Source: an uncultured Oscillospiraceae bacterium | Lineage (GTDB): Bacteria; Bacillota; Clostridia; Oscillospirales; Oscillospiraceae | DNA length: 64,000 nucleotides | Assembly (NCBI GenBank): GCA_934589185.1 | Contig: CAKTNQ010000001.1 | Coordinates: forward strand, 35,433 to 99,432 | Direction: 5' to 3' | Shown here: positions 1-9,830 of the stretch, in pieces | Layout: every line of letters starts with the position of its first letter | How positions within the stretch are numbered: position 1 is the stretch's first letter | The notes under the pieces: generated by a model | What the model was told of the DNA's origin: nothing | Seen by the model: the letters and a program-made list of their open reading frames with translations, nothing else | The model's database searches: none | Program-made: the position numbers and the translations under genes

Positions 1-158
1 TGCACACCGACAAGTCCGGTTTCGCAGAGTTTGTTGTATACGCTCCAGTCAAAGCCGTTCTCGTCCATCCATTTGTCTCGAGGGGCAACCTCTTTCTCTG
101 TGAATTCCTTTACCATATCACGGATCATGGATTGTTCTTCAGTAAATTTGATGAGCAT
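1..158 (-). CDS. acyl-CoA dehydrogenase, N-terminal 52 codons only (gene continues past the left edge)
   Basis: Reverse complement of 1-158 reads MLIKFTEEQSMIRDMVKEFTEKEVAPRDKWMDENGFDWSVYNKLCETGLVGV, a typical ACAD N-terminus. GGAGA SD (plus 166-170) lies 7 nt upstream of the ATG (156-158). Absent from the ORF track because it is truncated. Confidence 0.6.
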   Translation of the reverse strand, partial: MLIKFTEEQSMIRDMVKEFTEKEVAPRDKWMDENGFDWSVYNKLCETGLVGV

Positions 159-315
159 AATTTTTTCTCCAATATAGCAGTTTTACGGCTGTATTCCGGC
201 ACTGCAGTATTTATAAGATAAATCTTTAACAAAAAGATGCCGATACGCCGTATCTCCCAGACCGGATAAGCAGCCTGAGAGATATTGGTGCTTTGTGTGT
301 AATTACTGTGCCAGC

Positions 316-1593
316 TTACACTGCGTAGAATAGCAGAGAAGCCAAGACAGTGAACGGGATAAGAATAATCAGCAGGGGCAGACCCACAACAAGGTAATCT
401 TTCGGGCGGTAGCCGCCGGCGAGAGAGACGGTCATGCAGGGGCTGCCGATGGGGGAGATGACTGCATTGTTGACCATGACCAGTGCGGGGATCACGATCG
501 CAAGCGGGCTTACGCCGATGCCTTGTGCGAGAGAGATGCAGATAGGCGTGAACATTGCGTTAGTAGCGGTGTTAGACATGAACTGGGTCAAGATTCCGCC
601 GATTGCAGCAACGCAGAGAATGATGGTGGTGTAGTTTGCGTTGTCGCCAAGGATCTTGAGGATGCCGTTTGCAACCCACGTGCCGGTACCGGAGGTGTTG
701 ACTGCAGAAGCGACAACGAGGCAGAAGTTCAGATTCCACATGGTGTTCCAATCCACGTTCTTGAGAGAGGGAACCACGGGGACCGTGCCGGTGATCCAGA
801 GAATGATGCAGCCGATGAAGGTAATGACCTGGTTATCGGCAACCTTGAGGATGAAGCACACGATGGAGCCGACCAGAACGCCAATCGCGACAAGCCGCTT
901 CCACAGAGGAGCGGAAGGCGCATCTTTGGGCGCATCGAGCTGACCGGCGGCCAGGGGATCATCGAACTTGCAGGTCTTGACAAGGATATTGTAGCCGATG
1001 GTTGCAAAGTAAAAAGCGGTGATGACGACAAGGACGATCGTCAGAGGAGCTGCAGAGAAAAAGCCCATGGTTTCCACGCCCGCAGCCTCAAGTGCGCCTT
1101 GTGCAGCAAGGTTGGGAGCGCCGCCAATGAGAGAAATGGATTCGCCGACGGTTGCCTCGACGGCAACACCCATCAGTAGGTATTTGGGGTGAAGTTTACC
1201 GCAGGACTTGACGGCTGCGCCGGCAAGAACGGGGATCATAAGAACAACGAGCGCAGTGTTGGAGATGAAGCCGGTGATGATGCCGGAGAATAAGCACGTT
1301 ACGAAAACGGCAAGGCGCTCTTTTTCGACAACTTTTCCTCTGAATATTTTGGCGGCTGCCATGTCAACAAGGCCGGTCGCCTCAAGTGCGTAAACTTCGA
1401 TGGACATACCAATGAGGAAGATGATGGTAGATCCACCAAAGCTGGAGTAGAGTTTTGCTGGCTCAACGATTCCTGTGATCCAGAGTGCCACGCCAGCGAG
1501 CGTCATGGTAACTGCGAGCGGGAACTTGTTGAGTAGCATCAGTGCGAACATTGCCGCGATAATGACGAGTGTTGTGATGATCTGCGGTGTCAT
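316..1593 (-). CDS. DASS/SLC13-type Na+:di/tricarboxylate symporter
   Basis: ORF 316-1659, start moved to ATG 1593 (MTPQIITT...) with AGGAGAA SD at 1602-1608. Polytopic hydrophobic protein with two hairpin-tip SNT motifs (FISNTALVV, FMSNTATNAM), as in DASS transporters. Confidence 0.7.
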   Translation of the reverse strand: MTPQIITTLVIIAAMFALMLLNKFPLAVTMTLAGVALWITGIVEPAKLYSSFGGSTIIFLIGMSIEVYALEATGLVDMAAAKIFRGKVVEKERLAVFVTCLFSGIITGFISNTALVVLMIPVLAGAAVKSCGKLHPKYLLMGVAVEATVGESISLIGGAPNLAAQGALEAAGVETMGFFSAAPLTIVLVVITAFYFATIGYNILVKTCKFDDPLAAGQLDAPKDAPSAPLWKRLVAIGVLVGSIVCFILKVADNQVITFIGCIILWITGTVPVVPSLKNVDWNTMWNLNFCLVVASAVNTSGTGTWVANGILKILGDNANYTTIILCVAAIGGILTQFMSNTATNAMFTPICISLAQGIGVSPLAIVIPALVMVNNAVISPIGSPCMTVSLAGGYRPKDYLVVGLPLLIILIPFTVLASLLFYAV

Positions 1594-1766
1594 GTTAGGA
1601 ATTCTCCTTTTCTTTTTTACCGTGCACAGGTTTCTTGGCACGTATATGGCCGTTTCCATTCTGTCGCCTTTGAAACCGTTGCTGCATGACTCACGCAGAA
1701 TATCCGTGCGTGTTTTGTGCAGCTATGATTATAAGGCTCCGCAAAAAATACTATTATACTATCGTT

Positions 1767-1783
1767 TTGCAAACGTTTTGCAA
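1767..1783. promoter_or_regulatory. LTTR-box-like inverted repeat TTGCA-N7-TGCAA (T-N11-A) in the divergent lysR/transporter intergenic region
   Basis: Sequence ttttgcaaacgttttgcaaaa (1765-1785) contains two tandem TTTGCAAA palindromes. It sits just upstream of TTGACT (1791-1796). Confidence 0.35.
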
Positions 1784-1951
1784 AAAACTCTTGACTATTT
1801 CACCTCTTTCCGTGAATATATAAAAGGATTTATCTTCTGACTGGTTCAGACTGGCGACTGGTATGCCTTAGTTATAGTATTGACAATGCGAGAAGTAAAA
1901 TAATTATTTAACAAAGAACGATAAGCCAGAGCTTATGGATCAGGGGTTACT

Positions 1952-2848
1952 ATGACAATTCAACAGTTGCGACAATTCTGCATCTTGGCAGAATATGAAA
2001 ACATAACACTGGCATCAAAAGCGCTTTTTATCACACAGCCAGCGCTCAGTATGGTGCTGAAAAATGTCGAAAAAGAGTTGGGGTTACCATTGTTTGACCG
2101 GAAGGGCAGAAATATATATCTCAATCATCTCGGAAAAGACTTCTATAATTTTGCCAAGCGGACATTGGCCGATTACGATGCGCTGTTGGAAAAATTCCGT
2201 GCTCCGCATCAGGACAGTGATGCGCTGCATTTCTGCTATTCCTCGGCATATATCCCGGATTATGTCCTGCCTGCTTTCAGCGCGGATAACCCAAATATTC
2301 CGATAACCATAAACGAGGTTGAGGAAAAAATGATACCGCACTTTCTGCAAAACGAGATTTATGACATTGCAATCTCGAGTCTGAAGTGTGACACCGGAAA
2401 TCAAAGGCTGATCAGCGCGAATTTTTTCCGCAACAAACTTATGGTGTCTGTGCCGTTCAACAATCCGCTCGCCTCGCACAAATTACTAAGAATAGAGGAC
2501 CTTTCAGGGCAGAAATTTTTCCGCCTCAGCAAGCATGGCGAGTTTTCGGATGAGCTGGATGCACTGGCAAAAGCCAAGGGAGTGCAAATGAATATTGCTC
2601 AGCGCGTCAACTATGAGATCATCAAAAAGCTGCAGAAAGATTTTGATTTTCTGTACTTTATCACCACATTGCAGGCGCAGTTCGACTACATCCCGATGAA
2701 TCGCAAACTCATACCGATTGAGGAGGAATCGCTTTTTACAAAAAATATGTATGTGTCTTACCTTAAGAATAACGAGGAGAAGGCATTGCAGTTTATCGAC
2801 TGGGCAAAGCAGAAGTTGATAGATTTTGCAGACATTTCATTGACATAA
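1952..2848 (+). CDS. LysR-family transcriptional regulator
   Basis: N-terminal wHTH MTIQQLRQFCILAEYENITLASKALFITQPALSMVLKNVEKELGLPLFDRKGR plus a ~200 aa co-inducer domain. Divergent from the transporter and upstream of gcd genes. AT-rich codon usage. Confidence 0.9.
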   Translation: MTIQQLRQFCILAEYENITLASKALFITQPALSMVLKNVEKELGLPLFDRKGRNIYLNHLGKDFYNFAKRTLADYDALLEKFRAPHQDSDALHFCYSSAYIPDYVLPAFSADNPNIPITINEVEEKMIPHFLQNEIYDIAISSLKCDTGNQRLISANFFRNKLMVSVPFNNPLASHKLLRIEDLSGQKFFRLSKHGEFSDELDALAKAKGVQMNIAQRVNYEIIKKLQKDFDFLYFITTLQAQFDYIPMNRKLIPIEEESLFTKNMYVSYLKNNEEKALQFIDWAKQKLIDFADISLT

Positions 2849-2864
2849 TGAGACAAGAAGAACC

Positions 2865-2904
2865 AACGGCGCCCCGGACAGAGATAAAAGTCCGGGGCGC
2901 CGTT
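2865..2904 (+). terminator. perfect 15-bp stem hairpin after lysR (no U-tract)
   Basis: aacggcgccccggac (2865-2879) pairs with gtccggggcgccgtt (2890-2904). No T-run follows, so terminator efficiency is uncertain. Confidence 0.5.
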
Positions 2905-3156
2905 CATATGTCGTGCATGATTTGTCCATATTCAGTTTATAAACAGTAAAACAAACTGCCAAAGACAGCGTGAGAGGGGACACATAAATTGTCAATTACG
3001 ACTATTTATAAGCATTTACTAATCGACTTTGATAATTTTTTGATTTTACATATAAGTAAAATGCAATGTATCCTGTACATGCAAAAAGCTGACTGGTCGT
3101 ATCGTCGCCGACTGGTATTCGGGCACGATACGGGAAAATCGCAAATCGAAAGCGAG

Positions 3157-3492
3157 ATGAAACAAAGAATGGAAGCAATGTCATTCGGAGAAAGTCTGCT
3201 TATCTCCCTGACCGGGCTTGCTGTTGTGTTCACGGTACTGATTGTGCTTGCGTTGGCGACTATTGCCATTGCAAAGATAATCGGAAAATTGACGGGTGCG
3301 CAGAGTGCTCCTGTGTCTGCACCCGCGGCTGCACCAGCTGCCTCACCGGCAGTCCCCCCCGTTGAGGAAGATCTGAGTGAAGTGGTTGCGGTGCTTCAGG
3401 GTGCACTGAGTATGGAGTCCGGAATACCCGTAGATAAGCTGATGATCACATCCGTAAAGCGCGTTCCGGATACATCGGATAAACAGCAGTGA
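3157..3492 (+). CDS. gcdD: OadG-family small membrane subunit of Na+-translocating decarboxylase (GcdD-like)
   Basis: Single TM helix (LLISLTGLAVVFTVLIVLALATIAIA) followed by an Ala/Pro linker, directly upstream of the biotin carrier and beta subunit. Start is uncertain (ATG at 3157, 3169 or 3178; ORF track starts at 2989). Confidence 0.65.
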   Translation: MKQRMEAMSFGESLLISLTGLAVVFTVLIVLALATIAIAKIIGKLTGAQSAPVSAPAAAPAASPAVPPVEEDLSEVVAVLQGALSMESGIPVDKLMITSVKRVPDTSDKQQ

Positions 3493-3518
3493 TTTAGAGA
3501 AAAGGAAGGACCACTACG

Positions 3519-3926
3519 ATGAAATACACAGCAATTGTTAACGGCAAGACCTATGAAGTCGAGATCGAGCGCGTTTCCACCGGCCGCAGCATCGGTCATG
3601 CGGCGGCGCCTGCTTACGCAGCGGCTCCCGCTTCTGCTCCGGCAGCGGCGCCGACGCCCGTCCCGGCAGCGGCTCCTGCAGCCGCGACAGCACCGGCTCC
3701 TGCGCCCGCAGCAAGCGGTGGCGCGGTTGTCAGCCCCATGCCCGGCAGTATCCTGGATGTGCGCGTAAATGTCGGCGACACCGTTGCAGAGGGTCAGGTC
3801 ATCGTCATGCTTGAGGCAATGAAGATGGAGATCGAGATCAAGGCTGAGACTGCCGGCGTCGTGTCTGCCGTAAACGTCAAAAAGGGTGACATGGTGGAAA
3901 GCGGAAGCGTTCTGGTAACGCTTTGA
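3519..3926 (+). CDS. gcdC: biotin carboxyl carrier subunit of decarboxylase (GcdC-like)
   Basis: C-terminal biotinyl domain with EAMKME motif (MLEAMKMEIEI) preceded by a long Ala/Pro-rich linker. SD aaggaagga lies upstream. Confidence 0.85.
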   Translation: MKYTAIVNGKTYEVEIERVSTGRSIGHAAAPAYAAAPASAPAAAPTPVPAAAPAAATAPAPAPAASGGAVVSPMPGSILDVRVNVGDTVAEGQVIVMLEAMKMEIEIKAETAGVVSAVNVKKGDMVESGSVLVTL

Positions 3927-3941
3927 GAATGAGGTCTGTAA

Positions 3942-5096
3942 ATGGGAATCATTGAAGCTTTCGGCAAGCTGCTTGCTGAATCAGGATTTGCTGCGCTGAC
4001 ATGGCGTGAGGTTGTCATGCTCATCGTTTCCTGTGTTTTGCTCTACCTTGCCATTAAAAAGAAATTTGAGCCGCTTCTGCTGTTGCCCATAGCTTTCGGT
4101 ATGCTTCTGGCAAACCTGCCGGAAGCCGGCCTTATGTACGATGCGACCGTTAACGGCGGTGCATGGTACCAGTCCGGCATCATCAGAATCATGTACAGCG
4201 GTGTAAAGAGCAGCCTTTTCCCCTGCCTGATCTTTATGTGCATCGGCGCAATGACCGATTTCGGTCCGCTGATTGCAAACCCAATCAGCCTGATTCTCGG
4301 TGCGGCAGCGCAGTTTGGCATCTATATTGCGTTTATGATCGCAAATGCTACCGGCCTCTTCACGCCGGAGCAGGCGGCGGCGATTGGCATCATTGGTGGT
4401 GCAGACGGCCCGACCGCGATATATGGCGCCAATAACCTCGCACCGAATCTGGTCGCCCCGATCGCAATCGCAGCATACTCCTACATGGCGCTTATCCCGC
4501 TCATCCAGCCGCCTATCATGAAGCTGCTGACCACGGAGAAGGAGCGCAAGATCAGAATGAAGCAGCTGCGCCCTGTCAGTAAGAAGGAGAAAATCGTATT
4601 CCCGATCTTCGTCTCCATCTTCTGCTCGCTCATTCTGCCGGATGTCGCACCGCTGCTCGGTATGCTGATGCTTGGCAACCTCTTCAAAGAGTCCGGTGTT
4701 GTTGAACGACTGAGCGAGACTGCGCAAAACGCGCTGTGCAATATTGTCACCATCATGATCGGCCTTTCCGTCGGTGCAACCGCCAACGGCGAAGCTTTCA
4801 TCCAGGTGCAGACGCTTGCGATTGTTGTCCTTGGCCTTGTGGCGTTCTCGTTCTCCACGGTTGGCGGCGTGCTGCTGGGCAAGCTGCTGTGCGTAATCAC
4901 GCACGGCAAGATCAATCCGTTGATCGGTTCTGCCGGCGTCTCTGCCGTACCTATGGCGGCGCGTGTTGCGCAGAAGGTCGGCTCCGAGTCCGATCCGCAT
5001 AACTTCCTGCTGATGCACGCAATGGGTCCCAACGTGGCCGGTGTCATCGGTTCCGCTGTTGCGGCCGGCTTCTTCATGTTGACTTTCGGTGGCTGA
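3942..5096 (+). CDS. gcdB: Na+-translocating decarboxylase beta subunit (OadB/GcdB family)
   Basis: 384-aa polytopic protein. Sequence and length are typical of the OadB/MmdB/GcdB family (for example [28 protein letters not shown]). Confidence 0.9.
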
Positions 5097-5106
5097 TAGT
5101 AAAAAA

Positions 5107-5142
5107 CAGCGAGGAGGAAATGTGCACATTTTTTCCTCGCTG
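5107..5142 (+). promoter_or_regulatory. long intra-operon hairpin between gcdB and the CoA-transferase gene
   Basis: cagcgaggaggaaatgtg / cacattttttcctcgctg form an ~18-bp stem (two G-U pairs) around a TGCA centre. An A-run precedes it and no U-run follows on the plus strand. Confidence 0.5.
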
Positions 5143-5194
5143 AAATGCGATTCAACCGGAAACGGCATTGTTTCAGTTTCAAAGGAGATATATT

Positions 5195-6406
5195 ATGAAT
5201 ATTATGGGTAATGCGCATGACGCATTGGAAGATGTAGTAATCCTTGACCTGACAAGAGTTGTTGCAGGTCCGTTCTGCACATCCATGCTTGGCGATATGG
5301 GCGCGCGTGTCATTAAGATCGAAAATCCAAAGGGCGGTGATGACAGCCGTGCATATGGTCCGTATGTTAACGGCGAGAGCGCATATTTTGCCATGCACAA
5401 CCGCAGCAAGGAAGGCGTAACGCTCAACCTCAAGGCCCCCGAAGGAAAAGCGCTGTTCCTTGAGATGGTCAAGAAGGCGGATGTAGTGGTTGAAAACTAT
5501 CGTCCCGGTGTTATGGACAGGCTTGGCATTGGTTACGACGTGCTCAAAGAGGTCAACGATCAGATTATTTATGCCGCAGTTTCCGGCTACGGCTGTTACG
5601 GCCGTTATTCTCAGCGTCCGGGCTATGACATTCTTGGTCAGGCGATGGGCGGACTTATGAGTGTGACTGGCACCAAGGAGAGCGGCCCTGTCAAGGCAGG
5701 CAACGCCATGGGTGACATGCTCGGCGGCTTGAATCTTACGATCGGTATCCTCGCGGCGCTCCATGCCCGTACCATTATCGGTCACGGTCAGAGAGTGGAT
5801 GTGTCTCTTGTTGACGCAGTTGTTGTTAGTCTTGAAAATGTGTTTACAAGATATTGGTATTCCGGCGCTGTGCCTGAACGGGAGGGGAACGCCAATCCCG
5901 CTACTGCACCATACAACGCATATCAGGCAAAAGACGGGCTCGTTATCATTGCATGTGGCAACCAGCACCTCTTTGAAAAATTCGCAAATGATGTTGCGAA
6001 GAAGCCGGAGTGGATCAGTGATATGCGCTACATTGATAATGTGACGAGAGTTGCGCACTTTGAGGAACTCAAGACGGATATTGAAGCATGGGGAAAGGAT
6101 TACACTGTCAGCGAGATTGTTGACTGCTGCCTTGCCAATGGCGTGCCCTCCGGTCCGGTCTATGATGTGAGTCAAATCGTCAAGGATGAGCATATTGTCA
6201 AGGACCGCAATATGTTCCCGATTGTCCACCATCCTGTCATCGGTGATATGCACGTCAACGGTGATGCGGTAAAGCTAATGGAGACGAAACCCCGCATCAC
6301 AAAGCCGGCCCCCACACTTGGCGAGGACAATGTTTCCGTATATGGTGAGTTTGCCGGACTGAGCGAGGAGATTGTCAAAGAATATAAGGAAAAGGGTATC
6401 GTCTGA
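5195..6406 (+). CDS. family III (CaiB/BaiF) CoA-transferase
   Basis: ORF 5168-6406, start moved to ATG 5195 (AAAGGAG SD at 5181-5187). Hallmarks: VILDLTRVVAGPFCTSMLGDMGARVIKIE, ENYRPGVMDRLGIGY, and a conserved Asp region NAMGDMLGG. Confidence 0.85.
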   Translation: MNIMGNAHDALEDVVILDLTRVVAGPFCTSMLGDMGARVIKIENPKGGDDSRAYGPYVNGESAYFAMHNRSKEGVTLNLKAPEGKALFLEMVKKADVVVENYRPGVMDRLGIGYDVLKEVNDQIIYAAVSGYGCYGRYSQRPGYDILGQAMGGLMSVTGTKESGPVKAGNAMGDMLGGLNLTIGILAALHARTIIGHGQRVDVSLVDAVVVSLENVFTRYWYSGAVPEREGNANPATAPYNAYQAKDGLVIIACGNQHLFEKFANDVAKKPEWISDMRYIDNVTRVAHFEELKTDIEAWGKDYTVSEIVDCCLANGVPSGPVYDVSQIVKDEHIVKDRNMFPIVHHPVIGDMHVNGDAVKLMETKPRITKPAPTLGEDNVSVYGEFAGLSEEIVKEYKEKGIV

Positions 6407-6446
6407 TAATCATACACGGTTTATACGAAACAGATTGGAGAATGTT

Positions 6447-8210
6447 ATGAACACATACGGATATTCCATGCCTAGATATTTTCAGGATATGCCCACAATT
6501 GGAAAACCGCTTGCCGGCGAGAACGAAGAAAACCGCGACGAGATTCTCAAGGTTGAAGATGAGATCAAGCAGCTTATAGCGGACGCACTGGCTGCCGGAC
6601 GCAGCGATGAATCGCTCAACGAAAAGGGGCAGCTTACCGCGATGCAGCGTATTGAGGCGCTGGTTGACGATGGTACGTGGTGCCCGCTCAACAGTCTTTA
6701 TAACCCCAACGACAACGAAAGCGGCTCAACCAGCGTAGTGAAAGGAATTGGCCGCGTTGCGGGTAAGTGGGCTGTTGTCGTGGCATCCGACAACAAGAAA
6801 CGAGCCGGCGCATGGGTTCCCGGTCAGGCGGAAAACCTGCTCAAGGCTGCGGATACTGCAAAAATACTGCGCATCCCCCTTATTTATCTGCTCAACTGCT
6901 CCGGCGTTGAGCTTGACCAACAGGAGCTCCTGTTCCCCGGCCGTCGTGGCGGAGGCGCGTCTTTCTATCGCAATGCGGAGCTCGCGCAGCTTGGTATTCC
7001 GGTGCTTGTCGGCATTTTCGGCACGAATCCCGCCGGCGGCGGCTATCACTCCATCAGTCCGGCTGTTCTTGTCGCACAGAAAGACGCCAATATGGCGGTC
7101 GGTGGCGCCGGTATCCTCTCCGGTATGAATCCCAAGGGCTATGTCGACGAGGAGAGTGCGCTGGCACTCATTCATGCTCAGTCAGGCGCCAAAACGCCAG
7201 CGCCCGGCGGTGTAAAGACACACCATGATGTTACCGGCTTTTTCAGAGAGGTCTGCGAGGATGATGTCTCCGTTGCTGATACACTGCGCAAATACATGAG
7301 CTACATTCCGGGTTTTGATCTTGAGTTTTTCCGGGTCGCGCCTCCGATGGAGCCCGCTTTTCCGGCGGATGATCTGTACAGTATCATTCCCATGAATCCT
7401 AAGCGCACCTATGATATTTATCAGGTCATCTCCCGCCTTACCGACGCGAGCCAGTTTGATGAATACAAGCCTGACTATGGCCCGGAAGTGGTCTGTGGCA
7501 TCGCGCGCTTGGATGGTTTGCTTGTAGGTATCGTCGCCAATAAGCAGGGGTTCTTTATGAACTATCCTGAGTATCGCGGTGCGAATGCAGTTGGTGTTGG
7601 CGGCAAGCTCTATCGTCAGGGCCTCATCAAGATGAGTGAGTTTGTGATGCTCTGCGAGAGAGACCGGATTCCGATGATCTGGCTTCAGGACAGCAGCGGC
7701 ATTGATGTGGACGATATTGCAGAGCAGGCAGAGCTTCTCGGTCTCGGCCAGTCGCTGATCTACTCTATTCAGAACGGTGAAACGCCGTTTCTTGAGATTA
7801 CGCTGCGCAAGGGCAGCGCAGCGGCGCATTATGTTCTCGGCGGCCCGCAGTGCGAAAAAAACAATCCGTTCAGTCTCGCTACGTCCACCTGCGAATACTA
7901 TGTCATGCATGGTGAGACGGCAGCTGCGGCGATGTATGTCCGTCAGCTCGTCAAGGCGAACAAGGCTGGCCAGCCGCTGGATGACATCATTGAGAACATG
8001 AACGAGCTCATCAACGCTTATTATAGCAAGTCCCGCCCGAAGTTTGCGGCGAAACTAGGCATGGTCGATGAGATCGTACCGATGGATGATTTGCGCAACT
8101 ACATGATGGCGTTTACGCAAGCGGCGTACCAGAATCCCACTACGATTTGTCCGCCGCACCAGATGCTTGCTCCCAGATGCATTCGCGAGTATAACAAGAC
8201 AAAAAAATAA
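6447..8210 (+). CDS. gcdA: glutaconyl-CoA decarboxylase carboxyltransferase (alpha) subunit
   Basis: ORF 6372-8210, start moved to ATG 6447 (GGAG at 6437-6440). The 587-aa product begins MNTYGYSMPRYFQDMPTIGKPL. It carries VVASDNKKRAGAWVPGQAE and GTNPAGGGYHSISP blocks, which match my recollection of Acidaminococcus GcdA. It is longer than MmdA-type alpha subunits. Confidence 0.85.
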   Translation: MNTYGYSMPRYFQDMPTIGKPLAGENEENRDEILKVEDEIKQLIADALAAGRSDESLNEKGQLTAMQRIEALVDDGTWCPLNSLYNPNDNESGSTSVVKGIGRVAGKWAVVVASDNKKRAGAWVPGQAENLLKAADTAKILRIPLIYLLNCSGVELDQQELLFPGRRGGGASFYRNAELAQLGIPVLVGIFGTNPAGGGYHSISPAVLVAQKDANMAVGGAGILSGMNPKGYVDEESALALIHAQSGAKTPAPGGVKTHHDVTGFFREVCEDDVSVADTLRKYMSYIPGFDLEFFRVAPPMEPAFPADDLYSIIPMNPKRTYDIYQVISRLTDASQFDEYKPDYGPEVVCGIARLDGLLVGIVANKQGFFMNYPEYRGANAVGVGGKLYRQGLIKMSEFVMLCERDRIPMIWLQDSSGIDVDDIAEQAELLGLGQSLIYSIQNGETPFLEITLRKGSAAAHYVLGGPQCEKNNPFSLATSTCEYYVMHGETAAAAMYVRQLVKANKAGQPLDDIIENMNELINAYYSKSRPKFAAKLGMVDEIVPMDDLRNYMMAFTQAAYQNPTTICPPHQMLAPRCIREYNKTKK

Positions 8211-8413
8211 ATTTACATGTACACGCAATCAGGCGTGTCGTTTAGGTACTATCAAAAGGGCTGCAGCGTTTTTAATTTCGCTGCAGCTCAGTTATACTTT
8301 CGCGCGCAGTCTCTTGTGCAGCAGGCCGTGGCAGCGGGGGCTCTGGAAACGGTGATCAAGGAGAAAGGCGGGGCAGATAGCTTGCGAAGTCAAGCGGGAT
8401 TCGTAAACAACAG

Positions 8414-8442
8414 TTGCGGCGCGCGCGCTTTTGCGGTATAAT
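8414..8442 (+). promoter_or_regulatory. sigma70-type promoter for the NSS transporter
   Basis: TTGCGG (8414-8419), 17-nt spacer, TATAAT (8437-8442). It lies ~40 nt before ATG 8484. Confidence 0.45.
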
Positions 8443-8483
8443 CAAACCAATTTGTGCCTGAGTGCGTGAAAGGAAACAACATT

Positions 8484-9830
8484 ATGGGTAACGACGCCAA
8501 CGTCAGCAAACGCGACGGCTTTCGCAGCCGCGGCGGCTTCATCATCGCCTGCATCGGCTCGGCCGTCGGCATGGGCAACATCTGGCGCTTTCCGACGCTG
8601 GTGTCCAAGTGGGGCGGCATGACCTTCCTGCTGCCGTATTTTCTGTTTGTCATTCTCATCGGCTCCACCGGCGTCATCGGGGAGTTCGCGCTCGGCCGCG
8701 CAGCCGGCGCGGGGCCGGTCGACGCTTTCGGCATGTGCACCGAGGCACGCTGGGGCAAGCGCCGGCCCGGCGAACTGGTCGGCTATATCCCGGTGCTCGG
8801 CTCTCTGGCGCTGGCCATCGGCTACACCTGCGTCATGGGCTGGATCTTCAAGTATACGTTCCTGGCGTTTGACGGCGGCCTGTCTGCCATGGGGCAGGAC
8901 ATGGACGGAATCGTCGGCAGCTTCAACGCCACCGCCAGTGCGTGGGGCGCGAATGTCTGGGTCGTGGTCGCGGTCGCGGTGAGCTTTGTCATCATGTCGT
9001 TCGGCATCGCCGGCGGAATTGAAAAGGCGAATAAGATCATGATGCCGATTTTGTTTTTGCTGTTTGTGGGGCTGGGTATCTATGTGGCCACGCTGCCCGG
9101 CACGTCGGACGGCTATCGGTACATCTTCACCATCAAGCCCGAGGGCCTGCTCGATCCCTACGTCTGGATCTATGCGTTCGGTCAGGCGTTTTTCTCGCTG
9201 TCCGTTGCGGGCAACGGCAGCGTCATCTACGGCTCTTACCTCAGCAGGAGCGAGTGCATCCCGAGCTCGGCACGCAATGTGGCGCTCTTTGATACGATCG
9301 CGGCGCTGCTGGCGGCGTTCGTCATCATTCCCGCCATGGCGGCGGGCGGCGCGCAGCTCGACGCCGGCGGCCCCGGCCTGATGTTCATCTACCTCGTCCA
9401 TGTCATGAACGGTATGGCGGGCGGCCGCATCGTGGCGATGGTGTTTTTCGTCTGCGTGGCCTTCGCGGGCGTCACGTCGATCATCAACCTCTATGAGGCT
9501 CCGGTCGCGTCTCTGCAGGAGCGGTTCGGCCTCAAGCGCGTGCCGGCCACGGCGGTGATCCATGTGATCGGGCTTGCCGTTGCGCTGTGCATTCAGGCCA
9601 TCGTGTCGCAGTGGATGGACGTCGTGTCCATTTATATCTGCCCGCTGGGCGCACTGCTCGCAGCGGTCATGTTCTTCTGGATCGGCGGCAAGAAGCTCGT
9701 GCTCGAGAGCGTTAACCTCGGCGCGCGCAAGCCCATCGGCGGCTGGTACTATCCGCTGTGCAAGTATGTCTACTGCGCGAGCGTGCTCGTGGCGCTTGTC
9801 GCCGGCGCGGCACTCGGCGGCATCGGCTGA
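8484..9830 (+). CDS. neurotransmitter:sodium symporter (NSS/SNF) family transporter
   Basis: ORF 8454-9830, start moved to ATG 8484. NSS signature GFIIACIGSAVGMGNIWRFP. About 12 hydrophobic segments. Confidence 0.85.
   Translation: MGNDANVSKRDGFRSRGGFIIACIGSAVGMGNIWRFPTLVSKWGGMTFLLPYFLFVILIGSTGVIGEFALGRAAGAGPVDAFGMCTEARWGKRRPGELVGYIPVLGSLALAIGYTCVMGWIFKYTFLAFDGGLSAMGQDMDGIVGSFNATASAWGANVWVVVAVAVSFVIMSFGIAGGIEKANKIMMPILFLLFVGLGIYVATLPGTSDGYRYIFTIKPEGLLDPYVWIYAFGQAFFSLSVAGNGSVIYGSYLSRSECIPSSARNVALFDTIAALLAAFVIIPAMAAGGAQLDAGGPGLMFIYLVHVMNGMAGGRIVAMVFFVCVAFAGVTSIINLYEAPVASLQERFGLKRVPATAVIHVIGLAVALCIQAIVSQWMDVVSIYICPLGALLAAVMFFWIGGKKLVLESVNLGARKPIGGWYYPLCKYVYCASVLVALVAGAALGGIG

Follow-up and report, generated by a model that had tools for sequence, protein, structure and literature searches.

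Which acid is fermented by a gene cluster that encodes a Na+-pumping glutaconyl-CoA decarboxylase (Gcd) together with a carboxylate carrier, a CoA-transferase, and an acyl-CoA dehydrogenase (ACAD), but not the gctAB and hgdABC genes of glutamate fermentation? This question is raised by the left end of a stretch of 64,000 nucleotides (the window; positions 35433-99432 of contig CAKTNQ010000001.1, hereafter C1:35433-99432) from an uncultured Oscillospiraceae bacterium (GCA_934589185.1). The source genome is a 1.72-Mb metagenome-assembled genome (MAG) of 112 contigs with a mean G+C content of 62.2%. It is 79% complete, and gene absences reported for it are provisional for that reason. A previous sequence-only reading of the window had proposed a low-G+C island for Na+-coupled uptake of glutarate, its conversion to glutaconyl-CoA, and decarboxylation of the latter to crotonyl-CoA. 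For the present analysis, the sequence left of the window was added. The island probably encodes all that is needed to convert an imported C5 dicarboxylate to butyrate and CO2 with sodium pumping, and we give glutarate slightly less than an even chance of being its substrate.

The genes form two divergent units. The minus-strand unit (transporter-ACAD-etfB-etfA) starts with the transporter gene and runs beyond the left edge of the window, and the plus-strand unit has the order lysR-gcdD-gcdC-gcdB-CoA-transferase-gcdA. The features are given in window positions or, left of the window, in contig positions:

C1:32630-33628, minus strand: etfA, with an ETF domain (Pfam), following etfB
C1:33641-34426, minus strand: etfB, with an ETF domain (Pfam), following the ACAD gene
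1-158, minus strand: ACAD (378 residues), N-terminal 52 codons; the gene runs left to C1:34454 and its product has three Pfam ACAD domains
316-1659, minus strand: CitMHS-type (IT superfamily) carboxylate transporter; PF03600 178.5 bits, PF00939 48 bits
1660-1951, no strand: putative control region from which the transporter unit and lysR diverge, a role suggested by the divergent LysR layout
1952-2848, plus strand: LysR-family regulator with HTH_1 and LysR_substrate domains
2989-3492, plus strand: gcdD, OAD_gamma membrane anchor; PF04277 45 bits (cut-off 27) over residues 68-141
3519-3926, plus strand: gcdC, biotin carboxyl carrier with an Ala/Pro-rich linker; Biotin_lipoyl (PF00364) 69.9 bits, EAMKM motif with K102
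3942-5096, plus strand: gcdB, Na+-translocating decarboxylase beta subunit; PF03977 532 bits, TIGR01109 508 bits (cut-off 190.6)
5195-6406, plus strand: family III (CaiB/BaiF) CoA-transferase, 403 residues; PF02515 405 bits
6447-8210, plus strand: gcdA, carboxyltransferase subunit of glutaconyl-CoA decarboxylase, 587 residues; 3GF3 875 bits, 1PIX 829 bits

The decarboxylase was identified clearly. The alpha subunit matched the GcdA proteins of C. symbiosum (3GF3) and A. fermentans (1PIX), and the next carboxyltransferase match dropped to 151 bits. A methylmalonyl-CoA or oxaloacetate decarboxylase was ruled out, the mmdA model (TIGR01117) giving 133 bits against a cut-off of 999. By these scores the alpha subunit is unambiguously assigned as a true GcdA ortholog, and the choice of GcdA over MmdA made from the letters alone was confirmed, as were the domain assignments of LysR, GcdD, GcdC, GcdB, and the family III CoA-transferase. 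The gcdA gene encodes the only carboxyltransferase of the genome, and gcdB gave the single OAD_beta match in a search of the genome. Family membership firmly predicts that GcdABCD decarboxylates glutaconyl-CoA, a reaction that would be coupled to export of Na+. In its parts the complex resembles the GcdABCD enzymes of A. fermentans and C. symbiosum, which share the orthologous alpha subunit, the beta pump, the EAMKM-bearing carrier, and the small OAD_gamma anchor. It differs from them in its gene order, D-C-B-[CoA-transferase]-A, and in its location on an acquired island, where the gcd genes are not linked to gctAB or hgdCAB but are joined to a family III transferase, ACAD-etfBA, a carboxylate transporter, and LysR. 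The six conspecific contigs inspected all lack a gene call for the gcdD open reading frame (2989-3492), whose OAD_gamma domain is clear. Its true start is likely an ATG at 3157-3178, giving a protein of 104-111 residues.

Family membership likewise firmly predicts carboxylate uptake for the carrier and CoA transfer for the transferase. The carrier had been taken for a DASS/SLC13-type symporter. This assignment had to be abandoned: CitMHS was the best family (178.5 bits versus 48 bits for Na_sulph_symp), and TIGR00785 reached 112 against a cut-off of 198.6. In conspecific contigs the transporter was called with a 425-residue start, near position 1593. The CoA-transferase shares the family III fold and the conserved Asp with SUGCT (9BR6/9BR7) and the YfdE/Frc-type enzymes, at ~250 bits; the Asp of its GNAMGD motif aligns with that of SUGCT, YfdE, and formyl-CoA transferase. 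Within family III it is one of the dicarboxylate-type enzymes, and the family call made earlier was right to that extent. The protein stayed below all substrate-specific NCBIfam cut-offs, with scores of 309 for mesaconate (cut-off 700), 295 for oxalate (522), and 281 for the succinate-glutarate model NF052585 (750), the last of which sets it apart from SUGCT. Homologues of 73-93% identity always adjoin gcdA. More distant ones appear to lie in other C5/C6-diacid-like contexts. The gene of a Kallipyga homologue (69% identity) is accompanied by those of a carrier, MaoC, and LysR. In Clostridioides difficile (locus L047, OX246690.1:866403-887581), a lacI gene is divergent from genes for an HMG-CoA-lyase-like protein, a MatC/CitMHS carrier, and a 56%-identical transferase; the locus continues with a crotonase, a GntP permease, a second family III CoA-transferase, an ACAD, etfB, etfA, and a sigma-54 activator. 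A class-wide search of 399 genomes with the transferase gave four distant matches (49-54% identity). A search of contigs, in which the matches listed were mostly distant CaiB-like proteins, added the C. difficile locus and a module from Lachnospiraceae (L045), whose transporter is 81% identical to that of the island.

We then ask what else in the genome could supply glutaconyl-CoA or consume its product. Beyond etfB and etfA, the sequence left of the window holds a fragment of an SNF transporter gene, a PI-PLC-like gene, and lysS, which rules out gctAB or hgdABC at this place. The earlier statement that these genes are missing from the window could be extended, since neither set was recognisable elsewhere in the genome: no family I GctAB was found, and one PF01144 match (31 bits) lay in a 4-hydroxybutyrate-CoA-transferase-like gene. 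The genome encodes two ACADs, the second of which is CaiA-like and belongs to a sigma-54 locus on contig C6; no second Bcd-like ACAD, and no crotonase, Hbd, thiolase, AtoDA, or MaoC, was found in it. The genome thus has no other crotonyl-CoA sink and no other Gcd, Hgd, or Gct. Because nothing else in the genome consumes crotonyl-CoA, the island ACAD must at least reduce this compound. An Rnf complex is encoded and would be available to reoxidise reduced ferredoxin.

The genome also contains at least seven paralogous gene pairs of the HGD-D superfamily, each encoding proteins of ~400 and 520-580 residues, with first subunits 50-59% identical to one another. For a genome of ~2 Mb, so many paralogues are remarkable. 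The pairs are located as follows:

C67:1120-3893, C25:4655-7609, C4:60721-63422, C3:27658-30398, C84:691-3465, C8:45663-48551, and C33:7-939: HGD-D gene pairs

With such proteins at hand, the island could be the lower half of a 2-hydroxyglutarate (glutamate fermentation) pathway, in which the family III transferase would replace GctAB for (R)-2-hydroxyglutarate and an HGD-D protein would act as the dehydratase. In C. sporogenes and C. difficile, pathways with a 2-hydroxyacyl-CoA dehydratase use family III transferases (FldA, HadA), which counts in favour of this explanation. Gcd and Bcd-Etf, moreover, are known downstream enzymes of the hydroxyglutarate pathway (PMC8085960). However, the HGD-D pairs scored best on the model of the double-cubane-cluster reductase (127 bits, cut-off 350), with 77 bits for HadC; their sizes are atypical, and none of them lies near a CoA-transferase gene or the island, so that an identification as HgdAB is unsupported. 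A search of 21 other species genomes of the genus turned up no GcdA (HGD-D pairs were not looked for there). A homologous module occurs in G439, a Lachnospiraceae genome with no HGD-D gene at all, and no hgd or gct gene lies within 10 kb of any of the modules described below. The module thus shows no dependence on 2-hydroxyglutaryl-CoA dehydratase, and we consider the hydroxyglutarate explanation improbable.

In the route proposed here, the CitMHS-type carrier would import the acid, presumably coupled to an ion. To activate it, the family III transferase would draw CoA from butyryl-CoA, which is formed at the end of the route, or from another acyl-CoA. GcdABCD would then decarboxylate glutaconyl-CoA and export Na+, the ACAD together with a bifurcating-type EtfAB would reduce crotonyl-CoA to butyryl-CoA, and the CoA would be returned to fresh substrate. 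If glutarate is the acid, the same ACAD and Etf would also oxidise glutaryl-CoA to glutaconyl-CoA. Crotonyl-CoA would receive the two [H] taken from glutaryl-CoA, and glutarate would be converted overall to butyrate and CO2, as in Pelospora glutarica.

The fermentation of glutarate by P. glutarica (strain WoGl3) was reportedly characterized by Matthies and Schink in 1992 through physiology and enzyme assays. The scheme for this organism consists of a CoA-transferase, a glutaryl-CoA dehydrogenase with Etf, Gcd, and crotonyl-CoA reduction, and the transferase is named in review as glutaconate (family I) CoA-transferase (PMC8085960). The island is alike in its enzyme types, with a CoA-transferase, an ACAD with Etf, a Na+-pumping Gcd, crotonyl-CoA reduction, and CoA recycling. 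It differs in that its transferase is of family III instead of family I, that it has a single ACAD, and that its activity on glutarate is a prediction. The glutarate route put forward by the sequence-only reading therefore stands in part: the enzyme types match the Pelospora scheme, and the island, GcdA, and the CoA-transferase were found as described, whereas the ACAD is no recognisable glutaryl-CoA dehydrogenase and the carrier is not of the DASS type. The Na+-coupled uptake and the closed Na+ circuit of that reading are at most putative. Neither a gene cluster of this layout nor a cluster or genome analysis of Pelospora was found in the literature searched.

The ACAD is the protein on which the choice of substrate turns. 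Its best PDB matches were of the Bcd type, namely 5LNX (331 bits), C. difficile Bcd (5OL2, 321 bits), M. elsdenii Bcd (1BUC, 315 bits), and A. fermentans Bcd (4L1F, 315 bits). For alignment, the sequences of 3MPI, the non-decarboxylating glutaryl-CoA dehydrogenase of Desulfococcus multivorans (GDH_Des; 3MPI/3MPJ, NF045552), and of the Bcd enzymes were recovered from printed PDB-search alignments. A maximum-likelihood tree separated 3MPI together with an enzyme from the neighbouring genus (support 100/99), the canonical Bcd enzymes, and a third clade (99/100), in which the island ACAD is joined by its counterparts from other gcd modules and by enzymes of congeners that lack gcd. By this analysis the island ACAD is neither a GDH_Des nor a canonical Bcd; with the island, the Etf-coupled acyl-CoA dehydrogenases gain a third clade. 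With GDH_Des it shares the superfamily, the fold, and the position of the catalytic Glu, at 35% identity. To the canonical Bcd enzymes 5OL2, 4L1F, and 1BUC it is 44-46% identical, and it differs from them by its clade, by a D/E-x-S/N-W motif on helix E, and by Gly before the retained catalytic Glu (IGEGT), where Bcd has Tyr (IYEGT) and 3MPI has Val.

The top five PDB matches of EtfB were all bifurcating proteins (CarD, 4KPU, 5OL2, 7KOE, and LctB; 198-222 bits), with human ETF at 110 bits. EtfAB is accordingly classed, by similarity, with the bifurcating (two-FAD) group, and an Etf-coupled reaction of the ACAD is firmly predicted from the families involved. The gene order ACAD-etfB-etfA is that of the bifurcating Bcd/EtfAB systems (5OL2, 4L1F/4KPU) and of the caffeyl-CoA reductase CarCDE (6FAH), and EtfB is closest to the bifurcating Etfs of all these systems.

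Several of these properties weigh against glutarate as the substrate. The ACAD had been expected to be a non-decarboxylating glutaryl-CoA dehydrogenase, and this expectation was not borne out: 3MPI scored 221 bits, the NF045552 model gave 262.7 bits against a cut-off of 470, and the protein falls outside the 3MPI clade. The column of Arg87 holds Arg in 3MPI and in the first ACAD of the neighbouring-genus genome G023, Gly or Ala in the Bcd structures, and Ala in all Gcd-linked ACADs including that of the island. We take Arg87 (Arg94 of human GCDH) to be the anchor for the distal carboxylate of the substrate, a role reportedly established by Wischgoll et al. in 2010. The island enzyme presumably also has an Asp/Glu at the position of MCAD Glu99, at the base of the pocket, which would disfavour an omega-carboxylate. 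Its nearest relatives (~70% identical) are encoded in AraC/GntR-controlled ACAD-etfBA-CoA-transferase cassettes without gcd, and these look like 2-enoate reduction cycles. A direct dismutation of glutaryl-CoA and crotonyl-CoA on one ACAD would need no Etf, yet etfBA is conserved. Finally, in G023 (genus g3 of the same family) gcdA is followed by a GDH_Des-like ACAD that keeps Arg87 (top PDB match 3MPI with 348 bits; NF045552 413 bits), and a separate Bcd-Etf is present, showing that nature can use two enzymes.

The G023 locus itself (L042; G023:C57:1-20000) has an unusual composition. It comprises gcdA, an OadA-like 5S carboxyltransferase without a biotin domain (NF008985 720 bits), a biotin carboxyl carrier protein, the GDH_Des-like ACAD, a crotonase, Hbd, CoA-transferase alpha and beta subunits, Bcd, etfB, and etfA, with no gcdB in these 20 kb. 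The 12S-like/5S-like/carrier trio looks like a soluble glutaconyl-CoA:pyruvate transcarboxylase, or like a Gcd that would borrow its pump from elsewhere.

The same observations suit a rival explanation. Here the starting compound would be glutaconate, or some acid whose direct activation yields glutaconyl-CoA, and the module would serve to dispose of electrons by reduction. The transferase would convert glutaconate to glutaconyl-CoA, Gcd would turn this into crotonyl-CoA with Na+ export, and butyryl-CoA and then butyrate would follow. The ACAD/EtfAB would be a crotonyl-CoA reductase only, using 2 NADH and producing reduced ferredoxin. Each protein would do no more than the known job of its family. 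This is the simplest of the rivals. It agrees with the lack of Arg87, the bifurcating type of EtfB and the presence of Rnf, the retention of etfBA in three module variants, the enoate-type cassettes of other clade members, and the absence of another crotonyl-CoA sink. Against it, free glutaconate is rare and, to our knowledge, is not a significant gut metabolite, whereas glutarate is a real one. In G439, moreover, the module ACAD would duplicate a canonical Bcd-Etf, and the co-variation of the accessory enzyme (ACAD or MaoC) with the transporter is easier to understand if that enzyme acts before Gcd. We regard the glutaconate explanation as rather unlikely.

On the side of glutarate, the five Gcd-linked ACADs differ from all others by A85 in place of Tyr/Phe, S89, G236, and H276 in place of Tyr/Phe; G236 is next to the pocket position equivalent to Phe252. 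These shared substitutions would count for a glutarate-related function. The Gcd-linked ACADs could be a new lineage of non-decarboxylating glutaryl-CoA dehydrogenases, derived from Etf-coupled enoyl-CoA reductases and functioning although they lack the canonical Arg that binds the carboxylate. In the present host, one ACAD/EtfAB would then oxidise glutaryl-CoA as well as reduce crotonyl-CoA. We put this forward tentatively, as a possibility that is on balance doubtful.

The four-gene cassette of the nearest ACAD relatives was met repeatedly (L126-L129, L043, L040, and L041). It consists of the ACAD, etfB, etfA, and a family III CoA-transferase of ~418 residues, is under AraC control (GntR/DRTGG in congeners), contains neither a transporter nor a dehydratase, and looks like a CoA-dependent 2-enoate reduction cycle. 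It is widespread in Oscillospiraceae, Muricomes, and Eubacteriaceae, one member occurring on >1000 contigs.

The module was also found in other genomes, on unrelated Firmicutes contigs of 50-56% G+C. In L017, CitMHS-cupin-etfA-etfB-ACAD is divergent from LysR-gcdD-C-B-CoA-transferase-gcdA. L011 and L012 have the same layout with a TRAP DctPQM transporter. In two Lachnospiraceae MAGs (L015 and L045), LysR and a TRAP or CitMHS carrier are divergent from CoA-transferase-gcdA-ACAD. In L016, gcdB-x-gcdD is divergent from LysR-gcdA-CoA-transferase, which is followed by a different carrier and MaoC, without an ACAD. The GcdD homologues of L017 and L011 have 106-112 residues. LysR, which reached no NCBIfam equivalog, has homologues of 50-57% identity in the same position in L011, L017, and L015. 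In the control region of the island (1660-1951), the top sigma-70-like match (10/12 at 1880-1907) lies upstream of lysR, in a scan that was overall not above chance. In L045 (L045:14190-15011; Lachnospiraceae RUG14180), the ACAD gene is followed directly not by etfBA but by the gene of a 273-residue protein with flavodoxin-like and 2x[4Fe-4S] ferredoxin domains, which may be an alternative electron partner of the ACAD.

This comparison shows that a CoA-transferase-GcdA core has been recombined with varying transporters and accessory enzymes. The core is constant, whereas the accessory enzyme is either an ACAD or MaoC depending on the carrier; this pattern fits a substrate-specific "funnel" into the core. 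The MaoC variants, which have another transporter and no ACAD, count for glutarate in this sense. So does G439, the genome of L045, which encodes, away from the module, EtfAB and a canonical Bcd sharing 69% identity with that of C. difficile, so that the module ACAD would be redundant as a mere crotonyl-CoA reductase.

The layouts also bear on whether the island holds one pathway at all. The genes could be neighbours only, with ACAD-etfBA as an independent enoate-reduction or butyrate unit, or with Gcd working as a carboxylase. ACAD-etfBA units of ~70% identity do occur without gcd in congeners and in many other Clostridia, and the nucleotide identity to L017, the closest module, differs between the gcd part (82%) and the ACAD-etf part (76%). 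Yet the ACAD is linked to CoA-transferase-gcdA in five independent contexts, in two of them within the same operon directly after gcdA. The transporter is predicted to be co-transcribed with the ACAD, and the whole block is one insertion. This alternative is judged very improbable. A related concern, raised along with the sequence-only reading, was that the ACAD might be a Bcd-type enzyme in an etfAB operon unrelated to dicarboxylates. Its first half proved apt, in that the gene heads ACAD-etfBA and its product is Bcd-like and not GDH-like. The rest did not apply: the protein is no canonical Bcd, the unit travels with gcd in three independent contexts, and it cannot be called unrelated to dicarboxylates because of its predicted co-transcription with the carrier.

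The edges of the island were set by blastn of C1:22000-50000 against the congeners G001 (a complete genome), G003, and G015. The left flank of G001 (9.5 kb, 93% identity) stops at C1:31485, the island starting at C1:31486, and the right flank (95% identity) restarts at C1:43830, which is window position 8398. In G001 the two flanks are separated by ~54 bp, representing the empty site. Window positions 1-8397 make up the right two-thirds of the insertion, the rest of which lies to the left of the window and spans 3,946 nt. The right end is delimited by the following features:

8397/8398, no strand: right junction of the 12,344-bp insertion; host homology restarts at 8398-8402 versus G001, G003, and G015
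8454-9830, plus strand: SNF-family transporter, a host gene flanking the island and outside it; PF00209 140 bits, 95% identical to G001

The junction lies inside the interval, about 8.3-8.45 kb, at which the low-G+C block had been estimated to end. The G+C content per 500-nt window was 0.41-0.59 left of position 8500 and 0.60-0.68 right of it. The inserted block as a whole had 51.9% G+C versus 60.1% and 62.2% in its 12-kb flanks, and the G+C content of third codon positions was 0.47-0.69 for island genes versus 0.86-0.90 for the host genes SNF, purA, and lysS. In the 21 other species genomes of the genus, one weak match of 26% identity to GcdA proved to be a different carboxyltransferase. A GcdA copy of 60% identity was found in one genome of another genus of the family. 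On the evidence of the empty site, the deviant composition, and the closest homologues in other lineages, the island is judged to be horizontally acquired, as had been suspected. At a nucleotide identity of only 76-82%, the transfer was not a recent one from the L017 lineage.

The island with identical flanks was present in many human-gut metagenome contigs from different samples, the longest of 585 kb, and the exact ACAD protein was present on 592 contigs. This recurrence, together with the position of the island inside a 102-kb contig and the host-like sequence on either side of it, ruled out an artefact of assembly or binning.

How the island was inserted is indicated by few traces. Among the island ORFs scanned, none had the domain of an integrase or a transposase, and the leftmost 1.1 kb are without a recognisable gene. 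The SNF fragment at the left end (C1:32057-32373, ~3.1-3.4 kb left of the window; 317 bp with a 110-aa ORF) matches an internal part of the SNF gene at 91% identity and may have been left behind by the recombination event through which the island arrived. The trace of mobility is limited to this duplicate; no systematic search for repeats was made at the junctions. In one conspecific strain (L027:15427-20986), a Tn916-type integrase/excisionase element replaces most of lysS beside the island, and only the tRNA_bind end of lysS is left.

A glutarate fermentation powered solely by a sodium-pumping decarboxylase has reportedly been known as physiology since 1992. The island is a compact and transferable candidate for it, no gene cluster having been assigned to this process in the literature searched. 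If the assignment is true, the island would be the first genetically defined, mobile glutarate-to-butyrate module of the Pelospora type, and one that is common in the human gut. Catalogues of butyrate-pathway genes that seek gctAB/hgdABC would miss or misassign such a route.

The sigma-54 locus that holds the second ACAD of the genome (L044; G000:C6:48000-66000) contains a further string of CoA-related genes. A sigma-54 activator gene and rpoN are divergent from a string that begins with a CaiB-like CoA-transferase, which scored 333 bits on the L-carnitine CoA-transferase model (cut-off 413). The string continues with CitMHS, the CaiA-like ACAD, which lacks the canonical Glu (IGGGT), a DinB/MDMPI protein, an acyl-CoA ligase, a further CitMHS, etfB, etfA, and an FAD-linked oxidase. 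This locus may be a module for carnitine, betaine, or a hydroxy acid.

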